From: a phage
Reading direction: 5' to 3' (one strand)
Length of the DNA stretch: 64,000 bases
Sequence record: PX104378.1
Below, piece by piece: positions 1,626-8,957 of this stretch. The notes beneath the pieces were generated by a model, which was not told the DNA's origin, searched no databases, and saw only the letters and a list, made by a program, of their open reading frames with translations. The position numbers and the translations under genes were made by a program. Each line of letters opens with the position of its first letter. Positions within the stretch are counted from its first letter, which is position 1.

Positions 1626-2660
1626 CTAACTTTTTGCGCTATTTACTTCGGCTAAAAGTTCATCAGAAATACGCTTGACCGCCGCAAGTTCATCCGGTTC
1701 TAGGTTTTGTTCTTCCAGATATTCGTAAACCATTTGAATAGTGCTTTTAACCTCAATAACACCAGTTTCCTGTGATGCGCTACTCTCCAGCTTATGGACC
1801 ACTTTTAGCTTGTGTACAACGGCCTCTAACGCGCTTTCTAACTTAGTTAACCCATTATCAGCGACCGTTGCGATAAGACGCACACTAAGCCCCTTATAGC
1901 GTTCTACATCGATTTTATCATCTGACGGGTAAGTGATACGCACATGATAAGTTTTGTCATTCTGGATAAACTCTTTTTTGTGTGTATCGGTATCGAATAC
2001 CCAAAAACCACGCGGATCGTTTTCGTCACCAGCCGTTAGTGTGTATGGTGTACCGATATACGTTACGTTACCGCCATCGCTGATAGTATGAAAGTGACCA
2101 GAAAACACTTCACGATATTTCTTGAGGAAGTCCGCGCTATAACCTTCGGATTTTAGCCCTTTATAGAAATAGTAACCAGACAATTCCCAATGGCCTACAC
2201 AATATTCGCTGAATGAGTTTTGAATAAACTCTAAAATCTCTGATTTATTGTCATCACAAAACCACGGGAACAGATCAAATGATACACCATCAAAGGTGAC
2301 TGTTTCCGGTTTATCAATAACCTTAATGCAATCATACTGGCTTAACACTTCACGCGGTGCGTTAGGCTGGATCTTGTTTCGTTTAAACATATCATGATTC
2401 CCGACCGTGGTATAACAAGTAATACCAGCCTCTTCCAGTAGCGGGATAATTTTCGTTCTATTAAAACGCATAGTTGCATGTGTGATTGCTTTTCGGCAAT
2501 CAAACCAGTCCCCTGTCTGAATCCATGCCTTAATATTATGTTTTTTTGAATAATCGACTGCCTTTTTAATAGTATCAAGAATATACTCATGTATCCACGG
2601 ATCATCGTTGCCGATACCAGTATGCAGATCACCTAAAAGCAAAATTTTCATATTATACAT
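1626..2660 (-). CDS. 47: gp47 recombination endonuclease subunit (Mre11/SbcD-like phosphoesterase)
   Basis: Translation (KILLLGDLHTG..GDWFD..GNHD..GHFH..GDENDPRGFW) aligns along its length with remembered T4 gp47; AGGAGA RBS upstream of ATG. Confidence 0.9.
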   Translation of the reverse strand: MYNMKILLLGDLHTGIGNDDPWIHEYILDTIKKAVDYSKKHNIKAWIQTGDWFDCRKAITHATMRFNRTKIIPLLEEAGITCYTTVGNHDMFKRNKIQPNAPREVLSQYDCIKVIDKPETVTFDGVSFDLFPWFCDDNKSEILEFIQNSFSEYCVGHWELSGYYFYKGLKSEGYSADFLKKYREVFSGHFHTISDGGNVTYIGTPYTLTAGDENDPRGFWVFDTDTHKKEFIQNDKTYHVRITYPSDDKIDVERYKGLSVRLIATVADNGLTKLESALEAVVHKLKVVHKLESSASQETGVIEVKSTIQMVYEYLEEQNLEPDELAAVKRISDELLAEVNSAKS

Positions 2661-2666
2661 AATCTC

Positions 2667-3221
2667 CTAAAAATTTTTAACACCATATTCACCAAAATAA
2701 AGATCAACCGCTTTGTCATAAGCTCTAGCCGCATCTTCTTCGTTGACATAATACCCAAGAGATATTAGTTTATCATTATTTCGTATTCTTGCAACCCATT
2801 TCTTCGTATGTTTATGCCAGCTAACTCCTTTATACTTGCTTGCTTTATTCTTGTACTTTCCAACGTTACAAGCATTTTTCTTTGCGTCGGACTCTCTAAG
2901 ATTGCGCGGTGCGTTGTTTAAAGGATTTCGGTCTATATGATCTATAATTTCTGGTTGTGTTCCATGCTCAAGAAACCATACAACACGATGTACATATGGC
3001 TTTAAAACCCTCCCATTATCCATAACGATTGCAATTTGGAGATGATCCTGACTTTTAAAAGTTTTTACTTTATCTCCTGCCTTATAAAACTTTCCTTCGT
3101 AATTCTTTCCTCCGGCTCGGCTATTCTTTAAATGATAAAGAATACCCTCATCGTCATGTCTATATCTTTCTCTTATAATTCGTTGCGTTTCTTCATCCCA
3201 CAATTTGGAACGTCTACTCAT
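2667..3221 (-). CDS. HNH homing endonuclease with C-terminal AP2-type DNA-binding domain
   Basis: HNH motif HIDRNPLNNAPRNLRE and AP2-like segment YKGVSWHKHTKKWVARIR..LGYY..EEDAARAYDKA; GAGAGGAAGA RBS. Confidence 0.75.
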   Translation of the reverse strand: MSRRSKLWDEETQRIIRERYRHDDEGILYHLKNSRAGGKNYEGKFYKAGDKVKTFKSQDHLQIAIVMDNGRVLKPYVHRVVWFLEHGTQPEIIDHIDRNPLNNAPRNLRESDAKKNACNVGKYKNKASKYKGVSWHKHTKKWVARIRNNDKLISLGYYVNEEDAARAYDKAVDLYFGEYGVKNF

Positions 3222-3312: not shown

Positions 3313-3600
3313 TTACAGCATACTTAATACCGTTTGCCGTGTACTAACCCACATAGCAGAAAGCAGTTCTGGCGTGTGTGGCTGTTTGTAGATATCACGC
3401 AATTTTCCGATAGCGTAGATATACGCATCACGGTTATCATCGATGATAGCTTGTTCAGCCCACCGCTTAAGGCGTGCAATCTCTCGCGAGTTCTTACGCA
3501 AGATCTTTTCCGCTTTCTTAGCGGCTTTCGCCTCTAGTTCTGCTTGTACTTTGTCTACTTCATTCACTACAATCTTGTCATGTTGTTCATCGTAAGTCAT
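3313..3600 (-). CDS. hypothetical protein (95 aa)
   Basis: Minus-strand ORF, tiles with neighbours. Confidence 0.45.
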   Translation of the reverse strand: MTYDEQHDKIVVNEVDKVQAELEAKAAKKAEKILRKNSREIARLKRWAEQAIIDDNRDAYIYAIGKLRDIYKQPHTPELLSAMWVSTRQTVLSML

Positions 3601-3601
3601 A

Positions 3602-3835
3602 TTATTTTCCTTCTGGGATATAGTCGATGATTAAAGAAAACTCATCTTCTGATACATTATAGCTATGTGAGATTGTACCCGTCAAGACCTCAAGATCCGG
3701 TGATTTGATATTGCACGGATCGATAATCACCGGAACGCCGCAATCTCTCAAAAATAATTTGGCGAAATACGGCACAAGGTCAGTTTCAAACTCTGCTTCT
3801 TCCAGCAAACGGGAAATGTTAATTTTCAATCTCAT
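3602..3835 (-). CDS. hypothetical protein (77 aa)
   Basis: Minus-strand ORF immediately downstream of gp55, small overlap. Confidence 0.45.
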
Positions 3836-4352
3836 AAAATTGGTCCAGGCTAGGCAATTCCTCGGTCAATACATCTTCAACCTTTGGCGCTTTCGGTTTA
3901 TTGACCGATTCCTCGTAGTTGTTGATCTTATCGTAAATGTCCTGTATGAATGCCTCATCAGCAATCTGGCACATATCAGCGTCGCGTTCGTCATATACAT
4001 GATGCACAAAATATTTGTATTTTGCGGCTGTCGCTGTTCTCTCTTTTTTAATGCGCTGTACAAAAGCATTAAAGCACGCTTGCGTGATGTAAGCATGAGG
4101 ATTTTTATACTTTGTCTCGTCAAAATTAATCAAACCCTTGACCGCCGCTTCGATTCCATCGTCGATCATTTCTTCGCGCCATGTTTGACTATAGCCAGAA
4201 AAGTTAAAACGCCGTGATAGATTTTTAGAGATTTGCATAATTGCTAGGCCGATTTGGTTGCTCATAGGCACTTGTCGACCTTCGGCTGCAATTCGTTGTT
4301 TCCAACGACAAATTTCTTCGTAAAGCTCTTTATTGTTTACATAATCAGACAC
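3819..4352 (-). CDS. 55: gp55 sigma factor for late transcription
   Basis: YVNNKEL...[54 protein letters not shown] matches T4 gp55 almost residue for residue; apparent GTG start after GAGGGTG RBS. Confidence 0.9.
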
Positions 4353-4392: not shown

Positions 4393-5862
4393 CTATTCCC
4401 CATTGCCATTATACTTTCTTTGCTTAGTTATCCACACTCTAACCATCTCTACTGATTCACCGTCAGACGGATCAAGAGTTTTTCCTTTTTTCTTCATGCG
4501 GTACTTAAATCCGTTAAATCTTGCATTCTCTTGCTCGTTAAAGTCGAACATCTTTTTAAATGATTTTCGCCCTTTACGCTCACCACATTCTAGCGGAATC
4601 ATTCGGTCTGTTATTACATTGGCATTAGGTAGAAACGTTTTTAGATAATCTACCAACGCCCAATCAGGAACATATAGATTAACATTCTCCTTGCTCTCGT
4701 TGTCTCTCAGGTTACAACGCAAACATAATTGAAATGCTGGTTCCAGATAATCAGACACATGACGCGCTTTCAAAAACTCATTTGTCGGGAGATCACAACT
4801 ATTAGCAAGACCTTTTAAAATATCAATCTCCCATCGTTGAGGGTTAAAGCTGAACATCACCGCAACATTTTTATGATGAATGTAAGAGTTAAGACCATAA
4901 GACCCGTAAGGTATCCGCTCACCAATACCATTTGTACACGCTTCACGGTCCCGATTCACGGTATAAATGAAGTCATCACCACATTCATTTTTAACCATAT
5001 CAACAAGACGTTCAAAGGTATTGTTTGTTTCTGACTGGTGACGCGACCAGCGTTCGGAGTCCGTCATAAGGATGATATTAACTCTATCTGTATTTTTATA
5101 CTCTTTGAAATATAGTCTGGATTCTAGCGCACTCGGAACAAAATCGCAATTTGCATAGTATCGTAGATACTTCCCGCTATATGTATCAAAGAGATTTGCA
5201 CATGCTATCGTAACCTTTTTAAAGTCTCCCCACGTACCGTGTTTGTTATCGTTCAAGAAAACAATTTTCGACCCATTCTTCCGGTGTCCTTCGTTATGTT
5301 TTACCATAACGTTGATTTTCTTCTCTAATAACGCCTCATAAAGCCCTCTAAGAGAAGAATCGATCATATCAGTACCATCCTTTGCACTTTCTATCTTTTC
5401 TTTGATAGCGGCCTTCTCAGAGTCTTTTAGAACTAGGTTCTGTAGGCATTCCGATTCGTCGGCGATTGGTTCGCAATGCTTCGTGATAAGTTCAAGATTA
5501 GACTTAAACGGATACTCATTAAATTCAACCAGTTGAGGAACTTCATCAATGTAAAGAGCATATTCACTAAACATTTTTGAACGCTCCATATTAGATAACG
5601 CTGTATGTGTGATGAATATCACATCAGCACCATCTTTAACTGATTGCATTATCGACGCTTGCACTGTCTTAAGGCTTCTTAGTCTGGTGCTATCAATCAA
5701 GACAGCACGACCGCCCATTCTTTTAAACTTATTGTAAGATTGTTCACTTAAAACACGAGATGGCGAAGCAATAACCGCTTTTTCTTTTGTCTCTAGGACG
5801 TGGGAAAGTATAGCATCAGTTTTCCCCGCCGCTGGCAATGCGATTAATGTTTCAATCTTCAT
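4393..5862 (-). CDS. putative P-loop NTPase (489 aa), function unknown
   Basis: N-terminal Walker A-like ALPAAGKTDA and Walker B-like YIDEVPQ; occupies the position where T4 has a-gt, to which it shows no similarity. Confidence 0.6.
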   Translation of the reverse strand: MKIETLIALPAAGKTDAILSHVLETKEKAVIASPSRVLSEQSYNKFKRMGGRAVLIDSTRLRSLKTVQASIMQSVKDGADVIFITHTALSNMERSKMFSEYALYIDEVPQLVEFNEYPFKSNLELITKHCEPIADESECLQNLVLKDSEKAAIKEKIESAKDGTDMIDSSLRGLYEALLEKKINVMVKHNEGHRKNGSKIVFLNDNKHGTWGDFKKVTIACANLFDTYSGKYLRYYANCDFVPSALESRLYFKEYKNTDRVNIILMTDSERWSRHQSETNNTFERLVDMVKNECGDDFIYTVNRDREACTNGIGERIPYGSYGLNSYIHHKNVAVMFSFNPQRWEIDILKGLANSCDLPTNEFLKARHVSDYLEPAFQLCLRCNLRDNESKENVNLYVPDWALVDYLKTFLPNANVITDRMIPLECGERKGRKSFKKMFDFNEQENARFNGFKYRMKKKGKTLDPSDGESVEMVRVWITKQRKYNGNGE

Positions 5863-6149
5863 TAGAAACCCTTACGTCGTGCTTTCTGGCATTTCTTGAT
5901 CATTTTATCAGAAATTTCGCGCTTAGGTGCAATCTCTTTCACACCGAAAGCACTAATGCCAAATTCAGAGAGAATATATTCAACCAACAATTCACGCACA
6001 CGCGCTTTACCGATATTCACGCCGTTATTTTTCAGATATGTCTGGCCTTCGACTTGCATCAGATCTAAATCCGCGTCGGTAATATTGATTTCTTCCATGC
6101 GCCCAAATCGAGAATAAACCATGTGTGCGATTGCATTGTGTACTAACAT
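5862..6149 (-). CDS. hypothetical protein (96 aa)
   Basis: Start moved to internal ATG at 6149 preceded by GAGGAATATATT RBS. Confidence 0.45.
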   Translation of the reverse strand: MLVHNAIAHMVYSRFGRMEEINITDADLDLMQVEGQTYLKNNGVNIGKARVRELLVEYILSEFGISAFGVKEIAPKREISDKMIKKCQKARRKGF

Positions 6150-6170
6150 AATATATTCCTCACTCAAGAA

Positions 6171-6329
6171 TTACTTAATGATACTGACTTTACCAGATCC
6201 GTGACAATGAGCGCAACACCCATCACCACGCAATCCTGTTCCGTTACAGTGTTTACACTTCTTCAACGGTAAAGTCATTATAGCAAATAAAGCAATAATG
6301 AACACCGAAACTAAATTCTCAATAATCAT
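6171..6329 (-). CDS. small hydrophobic protein with CxxC..CxxC zinc-ribbon tail (52 aa)
   Basis: Not in ORF track (<60 aa); translation MIIENLVSVFIIALFAIMTLPLKKCKHCNGTGLRGDGCCAHCHGSGKVSIIK; fills a gap between two genes. Confidence 0.3.
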   Translation of the reverse strand: MIIENLVSVFIIALFAIMTLPLKKCKHCNGTGLRGDGCCAHCHGSGKVSIIK

Positions 6330-6588
6330 AAATCGCCCTCAGTTCTTTATAGCCTCCAATGTGCTCGTTGTCAATGAATATCTGGGGGTATACAAACCGG
6401 AGGCTCTTTGAGTTTAGCCTCCCCGCCAGTTCTTCAATCATATCACGGTCGGGAATAATGTCAACCCCGACCTGCTTGAATACTGGTTTAAGTGTATACG
6501 GAATACCCAGATCATCCAGTAGCTTCATTGCACTAATACAACCATAACAATGATAAGCCTCTTTCGGTATACCGTATATCTCGATCAT
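6319..6588 (-). CDS. glutaredoxin-like protein (NrdH-like)
   Basis: N-terminal CYGC redox motif, ~89 aa, C-terminal GGY..L motif typical of glutaredoxin fold. Confidence 0.7.
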   Translation of the reverse strand: MIEIYGIPKEAYHCYGCISAMKLLDDLGIPYTLKPVFKQVGVDIIPDRDMIEELAGRLNSKSLRFVYPQIFIDNEHIGGYKELRAIYDY

Positions 6589-7082
6589 TTCTCAGCCTTT
6601 AATCTTTCTAGTTCTTCTTCCAGTTCCTTGATCCGTTGGTCACGTTCAAAGTCACGCTGTAACTTAGTGGCGAATACTCGTTTAAACTGATTGTAATCAT
6701 CGATTTTAAACACTTCTTCTTCGCCATAGCGACGCACAGAAACTTCGTAGTTGTTGAAAAATTGTTCCAACATTGCATCAGTAGTCAGTTCTGACGACAC
6801 CACTTTAAAATAACGTTCTTCTGATTGCAAAAACCAGTTGTGCGCGTATTCCCGTACATCATCAACATCTCGACAGGTGTATGTTTTTCCATCAATTTCA
6901 ATCGCAGAAACATATTCGATATCTGACGCAATTTTTTCAAAAGCGATAACTTTAAATGTACGGTCACCGATAAAGTCTGCTATTGCATCATTTGCAACAC
7001 TGGTTGCAAAGGCTTTCCGCGCTCGCTCGTTTTTCCACTGATAGGTCATACCAACAACAAACATATTACCATCAACAAACAT
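6585..7082 (-). CDS. hypothetical protein, paralog family A
   Basis: Contains VGMTYQWKNERARKAF and FKV..DG..YT domain shared with ORFs at 7084, 7930, 8402, 13320, 14555, 15136; charged coiled-coil C-terminus; start at ATG 7082 after GAGG RBS. Confidence 0.55.
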   Translation of the reverse strand: MFVDGNMFVVGMTYQWKNERARKAFATSVANDAIADFIGDRTFKVIAFEKIASDIEYVSAIEIDGKTYTCRDVDDVREYAHNWFLQSEERYFKVVSSELTTDAMLEQFFNNYEVSVRRYGEEEVFKIDDYNQFKRVFATKLQRDFERDQRIKELEEELERLKAEK

Positions 7083-7089
7083 ATTACCA
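7054..7089. repeat. tandem direct repeat 2 x 17 bp (CAACAAACATATTACCA) with 1-nt spacer
   Basis: Read directly; 18-nt period keeps frame and duplicates the start-codon context of ORF 6585-7082 (NMFVDG / NMFVVG). Confidence 0.7.
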
Positions 7090-7917
7090 ACCTCGCTCTT
7101 TACCAATCAAAAATTCAACTTCACGACGTTTAATGTCTTCTTGAAGGTCTTTAATCTTCTGGCGATCTTGCATGATTTCATCCATCTTGTCAAGTGCCGC
7201 AATGAAATCATCGAAACGTTCAAAGGTTTTACCTTCATTTGCTTCGCCAAATTTAACCATTGTCAGGCCATAACGACTACTAAAAAGACGCTTCAACTGT
7301 CCAACGACCTTAGAATCATCGTTCACCTTTTCTTCTGGTTCTTTCACGGTTTCAACTTCACGAAAATATTTTCGTTCAAGCCCAACAAACCACACAGCAT
7401 CAACATCATCATCAACACCCGCCGAATGAGGATTAAATGTTCCACAAACATTATCATTATTGATGTCGATCATAGTAACGAAACCAACAGAATCAACGGA
7501 AGATACCGTAAAAGTCTCATCTCCTATCCAATCAGCAATTTTACGGTTGATATTAGAACAGTGAGAAAACGTCACTTTTGCGTTTACATCCTTCCAAATA
7601 TAAGTTTTACCAACTTCCCATTTAGGAGGAACTTCTTCAACTTCACGAAAGAATTTTATATCAAATGGACTAAACAAATATGTTGACGTCCAAATGTCTT
7701 TTCCTGTAGCCGTTTTCGCCGTATGATAAACACCGTCTAGCTCTATTACATTAATCCAACCATCACCTTCGTTCTCGATGATGGTAAATGGCTTGTCACC
7801 AATAGCTGCACTGATATCGCTGTTAAGTGGAGAAAGAACACCTTCTCCGTTAGTAATAAACTCAGTTTTAGCGTTTTCATCTTTCCAAGTGTAAGTTTTA
7901 CCAATTTCCCATTTCAT
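7084..7917 (-). CDS. hypothetical protein, paralog family A (two repeat domains)
   Basis: MKWEIGKTYTWKD at N-terminus and second internal copy PPKWEVGKTYIWKD. Confidence 0.6.
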   Translation of the reverse strand: MKWEIGKTYTWKDENAKTEFITNGEGVLSPLNSDISAAIGDKPFTIIENEGDGWINVIELDGVYHTAKTATGKDIWTSTYLFSPFDIKFFREVEEVPPKWEVGKTYIWKDVNAKVTFSHCSNINRKIADWIGDETFTVSSVDSVGFVTMIDINNDNVCGTFNPHSAGVDDDVDAVWFVGLERKYFREVETVKEPEEKVNDDSKVVGQLKRLFSSRYGLTMVKFGEANEGKTFERFDDFIAALDKMDEIMQDRQKIKDLQEDIKRREVEFLIGKERGW

Positions 7918-7929
7918 AATATATTCCCC

Positions 7930-8397
7930 TTAACCGATTTTATCAAGTTCGTTTAATGCTTTCTCAGCTTCCTGTATAGCTTGCACTCTTTCCGGCATTT
8001 TGTCAAGAAAATCTTTCAACTCTTCAAAACTGGAGATATGACGCAAGGCGTTAGCACCGATAGCCGCATGTGATTTGCATTCAAAGCGGATTTTATAATT
8101 ATCCATCGCCAACTTGAGAAGATCAATTAATTTAGATTCTTCTGGAATAATAATTTCTTCAAATCTGCTACGGTCATGATCCAGAAACCAACAATATAGA
8201 CCTACATCGGTTGAACTCATATAAGTTCCATCATGAAGATAAACAGACCGCACGTATCCTTTTTTCGCATCAACCGACGCAACTTTAAACGGTAATCTCA
8301 GATATTTCAAATAATCAACATCATACCATTTTAAAAAATGGTCTGCATCTTTTACATCTTTCCAGGCATAGGTCTTACCAACTTCCCATTTCAACAT
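7930..8397 (-). CDS. hypothetical protein, paralog family A
   Basis: N-terminal MLKWEVGKTYAWKD..FKVASVD domain. Confidence 0.6.
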   Translation of the reverse strand: MLKWEVGKTYAWKDVKDADHFLKWYDVDYLKYLRLPFKVASVDAKKGYVRSVYLHDGTYMSSTDVGLYCWFLDHDRSRFEEIIIPEESKLIDLLKLAMDNYKIRFECKSHAAIGANALRHISSFEELKDFLDKMPERVQAIQEAEKALNELDKIG

Positions 8398-8401
8398 AAT
8401 A

Positions 8402-8947
8402 TCACCTTTCGTTTTTGATACGTGATTCTAATTGGATCATACGGTCGCGCGTTTGTTTGTATTCTCGGATAGCACCGATCCGGCTAGGCATACCATCCAG
8501 TACGCTCTTAATACCTTCTAGGGTAGTGATTTTAGCAATGCTATTATGTAACCCCATCTTATCGATCAACTGAATGTCGTAGGCTTCCATAAGCAGACCC
8601 AGACGTTCTAATGTTAAATCCGGTTCTTGTTCTTTATCTTCTTCCTTTTCTTCCGGTTCTGGGATTTCTTTGTCAATAGTAGCTTCGGTAAAGAAACGAC
8701 GCTCACCAGCCCAAAACCACACACCGTAACAGTTAATAGGGGATTCTTTTAAAGTCATGGAGTCGAAATCACTACCAATAATAGTAATTTCTCTAACATC
8801 ACCATCGTCATCAATGTCTTCTACCTTAAACGGGCGACCAGCCAACAAGTCCACAATACATCCGTTAATACCCGACGAAAATTTAGTCAGTTCAGCTTTC
8901 GACGCTTCGCATTTAATATTGTAGATTTTACCTACTTCCCATTCCAT
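8402..8947 (-). CDS. hypothetical protein, paralog family A
   Basis: N-terminal MEWEVGKIYNIK..RPFKVEDIDDDG domain; start at ATG 8947 after GAGGTGATTATT RBS. Confidence 0.6.
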   Translation of the reverse strand: MEWEVGKIYNIKCEASKAELTKFSSGINGCIVDLLAGRPFKVEDIDDDGDVREITIIGSDFDSMTLKESPINCYGVWFWAGERRFFTEATIDKEIPEPEEKEEDKEQEPDLTLERLGLLMEAYDIQLIDKMGLHNSIAKITTLEGIKSVLDGMPSRIGAIREYKQTRDRMIQLESRIKNER

Positions 8948-8957
8948 AATAATCACC

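Follow-up and report, generated by a model that had tools for sequence, protein, structure and literature searches.

A predicted SF2 helicase with an XPD/DinG-like fold, conserved between genes 55.2 and 55 in RB49-like and other non-T-even T4-like phages

XPD, Rad3, DinG and CasDinG are SF2 helicases of the Rad3 type, which act on DNA in the 5'-3' direction. Helicases of the XPD/DinG family are built of two motor domains, the first of which bears two insertions, an Fe-S (or vestigial Fe-S) domain and the Arch domain (PMC11981726). In CasDinG, for instance, Walker A occupies residues 138-146, the vestigial Fe-S domain 200-263, Walker B 336-342 and the Arch domain 352-467 (PMC10450177). A short type of DinG from cyanobacteria (sDinG) is devoid of the Fe-S domain and has three parts, the two motor domains and a compact Arch between them; these proteins, known from Nostocales and related orders, are described as having a degenerate ATP site and missing DNA-binding residues and are thought to be inactive (PMC11981726). 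The groups pVOG1685/9714, present in T4-like phages and fused to AEP-type primases in mobile elements, were predicted to be helicases by Kazlauskas et al. (2018, PMC5862659), who studied the AEP primases that such elements encode. In this work, we analysed a gene for a 489-amino-acid protein that lies on the minus strand of a 64-kb stretch of phage DNA (64,000 nucleotides, sequence record PX104378.1), the whole of which is referred to below as the window. A sequence-only reading of this DNA had described the product as a P-loop NTPase with an N-terminal ALPAAGKT and a downstream YIDEVPQ motif, unrelated to the T4 alpha-glucosyltransferase and occupying its position, and had offered a helicase, a packaging-like ATPase or a factor of defence/anti-defence as possible functions.

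The gene is an ATG-to-TAG open reading frame (ORF) in the six-frame ORF list, and its product starts with MKIETLIALPAAGKTDAILS; the list and the mapping of residues confirmed both motifs of the 489-amino-acid ORF. The ORF is intact and represents a real gene, with a G+C content of 0.39-0.40, the same as that of the neighbouring genes. It matches its counterpart in Shigella phage JK32 at 100% identity and RB49p044 (NP_891615) at 99.8%, which by sequence identifies the window as that of a Krischvirus, an RB49-like "pseudo-T-even" phage. In the RB49 record the gene is labelled "hypothetical protein", and the whole protein is assigned to PHROG 2467, "unknown function", with an E-value of 2.6e-174. 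The gene family was found in 244 phage genome records; most GenBank records of the orthologs likewise say "hypothetical protein", and one, that of phage W115, says "putative helicase".

We put the probability at roughly 0.6 that the protein is an active ATP-dependent SF2 DNA helicase or translocase, which would serve phage replication or recombination before late gene expression. The features of the gene and its product relevant to this reading are as follows:

4393..5862, minus strand: complete gene for an SF2 helicase-type ATPase (stop codon 4393-4395; ortholog RB49p044 / NP_891615; PHROG 2467)
5818..5841, minus strand: motif I / Walker A, ALPAAGKT, residues 8-15, with K14 invariant
5737..5772, minus strand: motif Ia-like IASPSRVLSEQS, residues 31-42, family consensus IAxPTxxLxxQ, aligned to PTRELAxQ of DEAD-box proteins in the profile-versus-PDB match
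5533..5553, minus strand: motif II / Walker B, YIDEVPQ, residues 104-110, with D106 and E107 invariant
5218..5529, minus strand: accessory domain of 104 amino acids, residues 112-215, inserted in RecA-like domain 1 straight after motif II according to the secondary structure of the model
5191..5214, minus strand: motif III-like VTIACANL, residues 217-224, marking the return to RecA-like domain 1; A222 at least 90% conserved, T218 and N223 invariant in the T4-like clade
4585..5097, minus strand: RecA-like domain 2, residues 256-426, from the AlphaFold2 model and the alignments
4945-4971, minus strand: motif IV-like FIYTVNRDR, in RecA-like domain 2
4882-4911, minus strand: motif V-like PYGSYGLNSY, in RecA-like domain 2, with G323 and N325 invariant
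4705-4743, minus strand: motif VI EPAFQLCLRCNLR, in RecA-like domain 2, with Q378, R382 and R386 invariant
4663-4671, minus strand: conserved VPD, residues 398-400, in RecA-like domain 2
4396..4584, minus strand: basic C-terminal tail, residues 427-489 (63 amino acids, isoelectric point 10.1, 17 Lys + Arg), sequence GERKGRKSFKKMFDFNEQENARFNGFKYRMKKKGKTLDPSDGESVEMVRVWITKQRKYNGNGE

To describe the family, we used a close alignment of 42 orthologs from T4-like phages (32-74% identity), in which conserved blocks span the whole length of the protein, and two diverse alignments of 125 and 79 members at ~20% identity. An exhaustive profile search of 1.84 billion representative proteins gave 1330 clusters at E <=1e-3, with 764 at <=1e-10. 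The only residues invariant in the 125 members are K14, D106, E107, G323, N325, Q378, R382 and R386, the same as in the 79-member alignment; since residues of the Walker motifs are among the few that remain invariant at ~20% identity, these motifs are not a chance match. The alignments thus show the predicted ATPase site to be intact and under strong purifying selection. The family consensus, AxxGxGKT / IAxPTxxLxxQ / ITHxAL / IDExP / VTxxxAN / FLYxxN / HGLNxY / YQxxxRTSxR, reads as the motif I-Ia-Ib-II-III-IV-V-VI series of an SF2 helicase, the names of motifs III to V being given by order and position and not by superposition.

The curated models point the same way. Pfam DEAD (PF00270) matches residues 11-130 with 28.6 bits against a curated cut-off of 26 bits, and among the 79 diverse members DEAD was found in 62/79 and ResIII in 41/79. 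The broad family profile compared with the PDB matched the RecA1 domains of DDX52, Mss116, reverse gyrase, PriA, Mfd, NS3, UvrB and XPB, down to an E-value of 9e-7; the narrow profile of the close family found nothing relevant in the PDB, and the NCBIfam scan of the 489-amino-acid protein gave no match. With AAGKT at residues 11-15 and YIDE at 104-107 the protein classifies as a P-loop NTPase of the ASCE type, and with two tandem RecA-like domains, motifs I-VI and the match to a curated SF2 model (Pfam DEAD) as a member of SF2. Hence the protein was rightly called a P-loop NTPase, its Walker A and B motifs being genuine, and of the functions offered by the sequence-only reading, the helicase is the one that the SF2 fold and motifs bear out.

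The AlphaFold2 model, calculated from the 42-sequence alignment, has a mean pLDDT of 87.8 and a pTM of 0.77. Foldseek, which the sequence-only reading had named as a check of the fold, found a P-loop SF2 helicase fold with XPD/DinG types first: the top PDB matches were CasDinG, E. coli DinG, XPD and Rad3 (E 1.6e-10 to ~1e-7), followed at lower ranks by generic SF1/SF2 proteins (Ighmbp2, SecA, reverse gyrase, T4 UvsW). Two structure searches agreed on neighbours of the XPD/DinG type, and the model aligned over both RecA domains to many SF2 structures. In a viral structure library, the same fold was found for proteins of Agrobacterium phage Atu_ph07, Ralstonia phage phiRSL1, Fusobacterium phage Fnu1, Achromobacter phage Motura and Pseudoalteromonas phage H101, and one uncultured-phage entry with this fold is labelled "DinG Rad3-related DNA helicases". 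The modelled fold is XPD/DinG-like, the motor domains of XPD, Rad3, DinG and CasDinG being its closest structural match.

The phage protein differs from these helicases in being much smaller (489 amino acids), in bearing a basic C-terminal tail and in lacking an Fe-S domain. Between Walker A and Walker B it has 88 residues, all in core strands and helices and without a single Cys, whereas CasDinG has ~190 residues there, and this leaves neither an Fe-S nor a vestigial Fe-S domain; in the T4-like clade, the only invariant Cys residues are C130 and C380. The 112-215 insertion starts two residues past Walker B and consists of mixed beta strands and two long helices; it is poorly conserved and acidic (isoelectric point 5.8), and on its own gave no Pfam match. 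It matches the Arch domain of CasDinG in position and is of similar size, so that we infer it to be the equivalent of the Arch. As regards domain layout, the phage protein therefore comes close to sDinG, from which it differs in its ATPase site, predicted to be intact and invariant in the family. The phage protein resembles an XPD/DinG-type motor, but since it lacks both the Fe-S domain and the sequence signature that define the XPD/DinG family, it should not be filed as DinG or XPD.

The location of the gene is conserved as well. In the direction of transcription, T4 has the order nrdD - mobC - nrdG - 55.8 - nrdH - 55.6 ... 55.3 - 55.2 - 55.1 - 55 - a-gt.5 - a-gt.4 - a-gt.3 - a-gt.2 - mobB - a-gt - 47.1 - 47, and RB49 has nrdD ... 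nrdG ... nrdH - ORF046 - 55.2 - RB49p044 - 55 - a-gt.5 - a-gt.4 - HNH endonuclease - 47 - ... - 46. When T4 proteins were used as tblastn queries, 55.2, 55, a-gt.5, a-gt.4 and 47 were placed in the window exactly as annotated, and T4 55.1 had no match in the 64 kb. The neighbours of the gene are:

5862-6167, minus strand: 55.2 homolog (DUF7570), upstream neighbour, located by tblastn with T4 55.2
3819-4352, minus strand: gene 55 (late sigma factor), synteny anchor and downstream neighbour, starting 40 nucleotides past the helicase stop codon
3602-3835, minus strand: a-gt.5, located by tblastn with the T4 protein
3313-3600, minus strand: a-gt.4, located by tblastn with the T4 protein
2667-3221, minus strand: HNH + AP2 homing endonuclease, sole gene of the interval equal to the T4 a-gt slot, between a-gt.4 and 47, and separate from the helicase
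1626-2660, minus strand: gene 47, located by tblastn with the T4 protein

Comparison of the gene order in the window and in RB49 with that of T4 shows that the 489-amino-acid gene fills the T4 55.1 slot, between 55.2 and 55, on the opposite side of gene 55 from a-gt. The assertion that it occupies the position of T4 a-gt is thereby refuted, the interval between the a-gt.x genes and 47 being held by the HNH-AP2 endonuclease. Synteny in other phages concurs. Twenty-nine related T4-like loci were drawn from viral contigs with the close-family alignment, the matches of which were T4-like phages only. The nrdH gene stood upstream of the helicase gene in 29/29 loci, gene 55 stood downstream in 22/22 loci having it within range (directly adjoining in 21), and the helicase gene lay between 55 and 47 in 0/22 of the latter. 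Aeromonas phage 65 and Proteus phage PM2 are annotated examples of this arrangement. The location after nrdH and 55.2 and before gene 55 is thus conserved in non-T-even T4-like phages. The sequence-only reading had also considered that the protein might turn out to be a known conserved T4-type gene, which is half true: the gene is conserved across non-T-even T4-like phages (the 244 records) and absent from T4, and the breakdown of the 244 matches by organism and identity indicates its absence from T-even type phages generally.

Two local variations were seen around this position. In RB43-type phages (RB43 L004 4984-8413; L032, L033, L036, L037, L041, L044), gene 55 was not found within 5 kb (<=5 kb) downstream of the helicase gene, and a 1220-amino-acid ORF of undefined role follows the helicase in its place. 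The HNH-AP2 endonuclease (2667-3221), which stands alone in the a-gt interval here and so mirrors mobB of T4, is present in RB49 and missing in two Krischvirus contigs with a 99-100% identical helicase (L016, L017), where the gap from a-gt.4 to 47 is ~94 nucleotides; it was found in 0/29 of the T4-like loci. The HNH-AP2 gene is a presence/absence polymorphism of a mobile endonuclease.

The gene belongs to the leftward early/middle block of DNA metabolism, together with nrdD/G/H, 55 and 46/47. It is translationally coupled to the 55.2 homolog, whose TAA stop codon shares bases with the ATG of the helicase gene (TAATG); in T4, gp55.2 is transcribed early and inhibits host topoisomerase I (PMC4396842). 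Four copies of the late-promoter motif TATAAATA were found in the window, the nearest at 27015 and none near the gene. Two sigma-70-like sites on the minus strand were noted upstream, one inside nrdH at 6464-6437 (TTGACA-16-TATGAT, with an extended -10 TG) and one just upstream of the 55.2 homolog at 6207-6178 (TTGTCA-18-TATCAT). Both are consensus matches only, in a region that has 16 such sites vs 9.7 ± 2.8 in shuffles; either could drive early transcription of the 55.2 homolog and the helicase gene. The gene and its surroundings showed no Rfam family and no significant repeat, and terminators did not exceed chance.

Further evidence comes from the C-terminal parts of the family members. The tail of the phage protein begins with a KGRKSF element followed by two helices, the second of which ends in VRVWITKQRK. 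Among the tails of the 79 relatives, those of proteins of similar length have a helix-turn-helix (HTH) in this position, e.g., "...NVSEISRRTGFSRSTINRI", "...IKEIARRASVSPKTIRNWIEK" and "...VGISRATAYRWLK", and others have a "GRP" AT-hook-like element with basic helices. In the 79 members, Pfam recognised HTH_23 (10), HTH_28 (6), HTH_29 (6), HTH_7 (3) and Herpes_ori_bp, PF02399 (2). By analogy, the basic tail probably corresponds to the HTH/AT-hook DNA-binding tails of the relatives and would itself bind DNA. Because the relatives carry such elements where the phage protein has its basic tail, DNA rather than RNA is favoured as the presumable substrate.

Moreover, 69/189 family sequences, equal to 47% of those outside the T4-like clade, possess a C-terminal extension of ~270 amino acids with the motifs DN.LISPA.F / hhhLDxDGG / S......RYRV.IPT / G.D.SK / FYLPC / G.....FF.L...L...GL. 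These fusions (relatives P0063-P0189; L014 5908-8196; L045 2441-4591) are ~800 amino acids long, with the helicase at the N-terminus and a primase-like module at the C-terminus. PriCT_1 was matched by 3/24 extensions, weakly (best E 1.3e-4), and the long relative P0074 matched PHROG "DNA primase" families. The extension shares homology with the C-terminal part of a protein annotated as DNA primase in N4-like phages, e.g., in Acinetobacter phage XC38 (tblastn; hmmsearch E 4e-16), and in the XC38-type primase the same module follows a different P-loop ATPase. The pattern hhhDxD ... D of the extension agrees with the AEP motifs I and III given in PMC5862659. Taken together, the alignments reveal a family-wide association of the helicase with putative DNA-binding tails and primase-like modules. 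The distant relatives occur in phage genomes and in one bacterial integrative element, the gene context of one of them (P0043) being uninformative. The bacterial case is a 546-amino-acid homolog located between a tyrosine integrase and a resolvase on a Neptuniibacter sp. contig (L008 5867-11274), a setting indicative of an integrative mobile element.

The family has very probably been predicted as helicases before (PMC5862659), since the traits recovered here independently match the account of pVOG1685/9714 by Kazlauskas et al.: remote SF2 similarity, occurrence in T4-like phages and primase-like fusions, to which Herpes_ori_bp in 2/79 members and a faint match to the SPbeta YonV_C model in one relative may be added. 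The correspondence was established by traits and not by accession, and the order of fusion is reversed, the helicase being C-terminal to the primase in that paper (Prim+zf-CHC2+helicase). The YonV lead yielded no usable literature, and SPbeta was not among the matches listed for the long relative as a query. What remains is a conserved SF2 helicase of uncharacterised role, in a family that the literature has very probably flagged already.

The following mechanism may be envisaged. The tail would tether the protein to DNA, and ATP binding and hydrolysis in the cleft between the two RecA domains would drive stepwise translocation along one DNA strand, with the domain that follows Walker B acting as an Arch-type strand separator or clamp. 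The XPD/DinG-like architecture suggests 5'-3' polarity. The targets of the protein in early/middle infection might be intermediates of replication or recombination, on which it would work as an accessory helicase, the fourth, alongside gp41 and Dda. It is orthologous neither to T4-type UvsW (SF2), a far weaker structural match than XPD/DinG, nor to Dda (SF1B), and since RB49 keeps its own dda and gene 41, the gene would encode an additional helicase and not a replacement. Given that about half of the sampled distant relatives carry a fused primase-like DxD/PriCT-1 module and that others have an HTH at the end, the DNA-bound helicase might open the duplex near the initiation or priming of DNA synthesis.

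Several points weigh against this reading. As concerns the motor itself, the best PDB matches at the sequence level are RNA helicases; the Pfam families listed for the 42 close and 79 diverse members include neither DEAD_2 (PF06733) nor Helicase_C_2 (PF13307); and hhalign of the family profile with E. coli DinG was negative (probability 0.6%), which is a weak test with a single-sequence template. The Arch equivalence is drawn indirectly, because the two domains were compared by position and size and not by superposition. In XPD and CasDinG, the Fe-S domain forms with the Arch a pore for single-stranded DNA that is needed for unwinding or stability (PMC10450177), so that with the Fe-S domain absent, unwinding and polarity may be different here, and a translocase or remodeller, in place of a true helicase, is conceivable. 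As concerns the tail and the fusions, the tail of the 489-amino-acid protein has no HTH or other Pfam match of its own, and the primase fusions occur in relatives that are only ~20% identical. The DxD domain of the extension has neither a PDB sequence match nor a Pfam model, and because PriCT_1 is the only, and weak, Pfam match of the extension, we call the latter primase-like and do not assign it to AEP. Finally, the function may be dispensable or host-specific, since T4 lacks the gene and RB49 already has gp41 and Dda, and the literature holds no experimental study of any family member.

A wider proposal, tentative and in our opinion rather doubtful, is that XPD/DinG-like SF2 helicases devoid of Fe-S domains make up an undescribed class of initiator or primosome helicases of phages and mobile elements, targeted by HTH/AT-hook elements, often fused to primase-like modules and representing a phage counterpart of herpesvirus UL9. 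The RB49 form would then open specific sites for origin-dependent or restart replication, together with the co-translated topology modulator gp55.2. The likeness to UL9 (PF02399) consists in an N-terminal SF2 helicase and a C-terminal DNA-binding region, with PF02399 in 2/79 relatives and HTH ends in many; the 489-amino-acid protein itself differs in having no PF02399 match and a tail of only 63 residues, basic and without a recognised HTH. If true, such a class would stand in for the usual DnaB, SF3 or MCM-type helicases, and the T4-like protein would be its free-standing motor.

Among the alternatives to a replication or recombination helicase, the one that survives best, unlikely as it appears, is a factor of counter-defence or inter-phage competition, e.g., a translocase that would clear restriction or defence complexes of the host from unmodified phage DNA, or outrun them, and that is kept in lineages without glucosylated hydroxymethylcytosine. 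The absence of the gene from T-even type phages would fit such a role, as would the region, which T4 workers hold to be variable and rich in accessory genes (PMC4396842), and the presence of the defence helicases CasDinG, Hna and DdmD among the structural neighbours. However, Aeromonas phages 44RR, 31 and 25 carry the gene together with a gene 42 (PMC2993671), and the stable position of the helicase gene and its apparently vertical inheritance across divergent T4-like genera (29/29 after nrdH) are unlike those of fast-turnover anti-defence genes. The links of the family are to primase-like and DNA-binding modules, not to nucleases or inhibitors, and PADLOC gave no defence model, the sole stray match (E 0.0087, 60 residues) being to an unrelated DRT-associated model. 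The defence/anti-defence option of the sequence-only reading thus found no positive evidence.

Quite unlikely, too, is an RNA helicase or ribonucleoprotein remodeller with transcripts of the phage or the host as its targets, e.g., in the turnover of mRNA, in translation or in the processing of R-loops. The top PDB matches of the broad profile are the DEAD-box proteins DDX52, Mss116 and DDX42, the best Pfam model is DEAD, and CasDinG, a top structural match, also unwinds RNA/DNA hybrids (PMC10450177). Those PDB matches, however, span only the generic motifs I to II of RecA1, whereas the structural ranking of the whole protein favours DNA helicases of the XPD/DinG type. Furthermore, the sequence has only 7 residues before ALPAAGKT, which leaves no room for a Q-motif, and the relatives bear HTH/AT-hook tails and primase-like modules.

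It is very improbable that the protein is a packaging-type or other non-helicase ASCE ATPase, or a catalytically dead relic. Walker A and B alone would fit many ATPase classes, and the sDinG proteins, which have no Fe-S domain either, are thought inactive (PMC11981726), but searches of Pfam, PHROG, NCBIfam, PDB sequences and folds found neither a terminase nor a packaging family, and the packaging-like option is without support. The second RecA domain is there, and motif VI with its arginine finger, the Walker A Lys and the acidic Walker B residues are present and invariant, which argues against a loss of activity.

Least tenable of all is the idea that the gene replaced a-gt and reflects or joins an alternative state of DNA modification: the lack of a T4-type glucosyltransferase or hydroxymethylase in the window, the unmodified DNA of RB49 (PMC4041780) and a DNA methyltransferase two genes upstream of the homolog in two distant phages would agree with it, but the gene is located in 55.2-55, an interval other than a-gt.x-47, its product has the fold of a helicase rather than GT-B or another fold of modification enzymes, it occurs alongside gene 42 in 44RR, 31 and 25, and the two methyltransferases belong to different families with unrelated proteins in between.

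As for DNA modification in general, T4 a-gt, beta-gt and gp42 used as tblastn queries had no significant match anywhere in the 64-kb window, which thus has no T4-type glucosyltransferase at the sensitivity of tblastn, and the RB49 interval from uvsX to 43, compared with that of T4, is without 42 and beta-gt. For RB49 this was already published: the phage is described as having no hydroxymethylase and beta-glucosyltransferase, and its DNA was shown experimentally to be cut by enzymes that modified cytosine blocks, i.e., to contain unmodified cytosine (PMC4041780). The modification status of RB49 DNA is prior knowledge, not a new result. Moreover, Petrov et al. reported alpha-gt in "T-even type phages only" (PMC2993671), so a missing a-gt is the rule outside the T-even group. 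The same paper lists gene 42 for Aeromonas phages 44RR, 31 and 25, all of which have a homolog of the 489-amino-acid gene; because both occur together there, presence of the gene does not track modification status. Hence the statement that no glucosyltransferase is seen in the window stands, and the implied link of the gene to modification status does not. The protein was also rightly called unrelated to a-gt, from which it differs in sequence (null tblastn), in fold class and in its side of gene 55, the only likeness being the shared general 47-55-nrd region of the genome. The 489-amino-acid gene has no part in DNA glucosylation.

In Atu_ph07 and one unrelated metagenomic phage (L011 4610-8497; L012; L014 3552-8196), a gene for a DNA methyltransferase precedes the helicase homolog by two genes. 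A methyltransferase-X-helicase module was considered and rejected: since the methyltransferases are of different families (D12, N6_N4) and the intervening proteins are unrelated (one of them of CapR-homology repeats), the adjacency is probably coincidental.

As nothing replaced the alpha-glucosyltransferase, the remaining interest lies in a well-conserved enzyme whose biological role is uncharacterised. The gene occurs in 244 phage genome records, and its family counts at least 1330 clusters of proteins (50% identity). Many T4-type phages apparently have it as their fourth helicase, among them candidates for therapeutic use with the hosts Escherichia, Klebsiella, Enterobacter, Cronobacter, Proteus, Serratia and Aeromonas. 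A small, soluble-looking XPD/DinG-like motor without the Fe-S domain could help to show what that domain contributes to unwinding, and the primase-like fusions of the relatives give a testable lead to a role in DNA replication. In the annotation, "hypothetical protein" can justifiably be replaced by "SF2 (XPD/DinG-like) helicase".

Two further observations concern the genes upstream, all on the minus strand and annotated as hypothetical in RB49. Between nrdH and nrdG, at 6585-8956, there are four tandem paralogous genes (6585-7106, 7084-7917, 7930-8397 and 8402-8956), which share an N-terminal "WE(V/I)GKxYxWK" domain, present in two copies (residues 3 and 100) in the 277-amino-acid member; pairwise blastp E-values are mostly 1e-5 to 2e-10, the weakest detected being 0.008, and one pair gave no match. 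At 6171-6329, a 52-amino-acid ORF encodes an N-terminal hydrophobic helix followed by KCKHCNGTG...CCAHCHGSG, i.e., paired DnaJ-like CxxCxGxG zinc-finger motifs.

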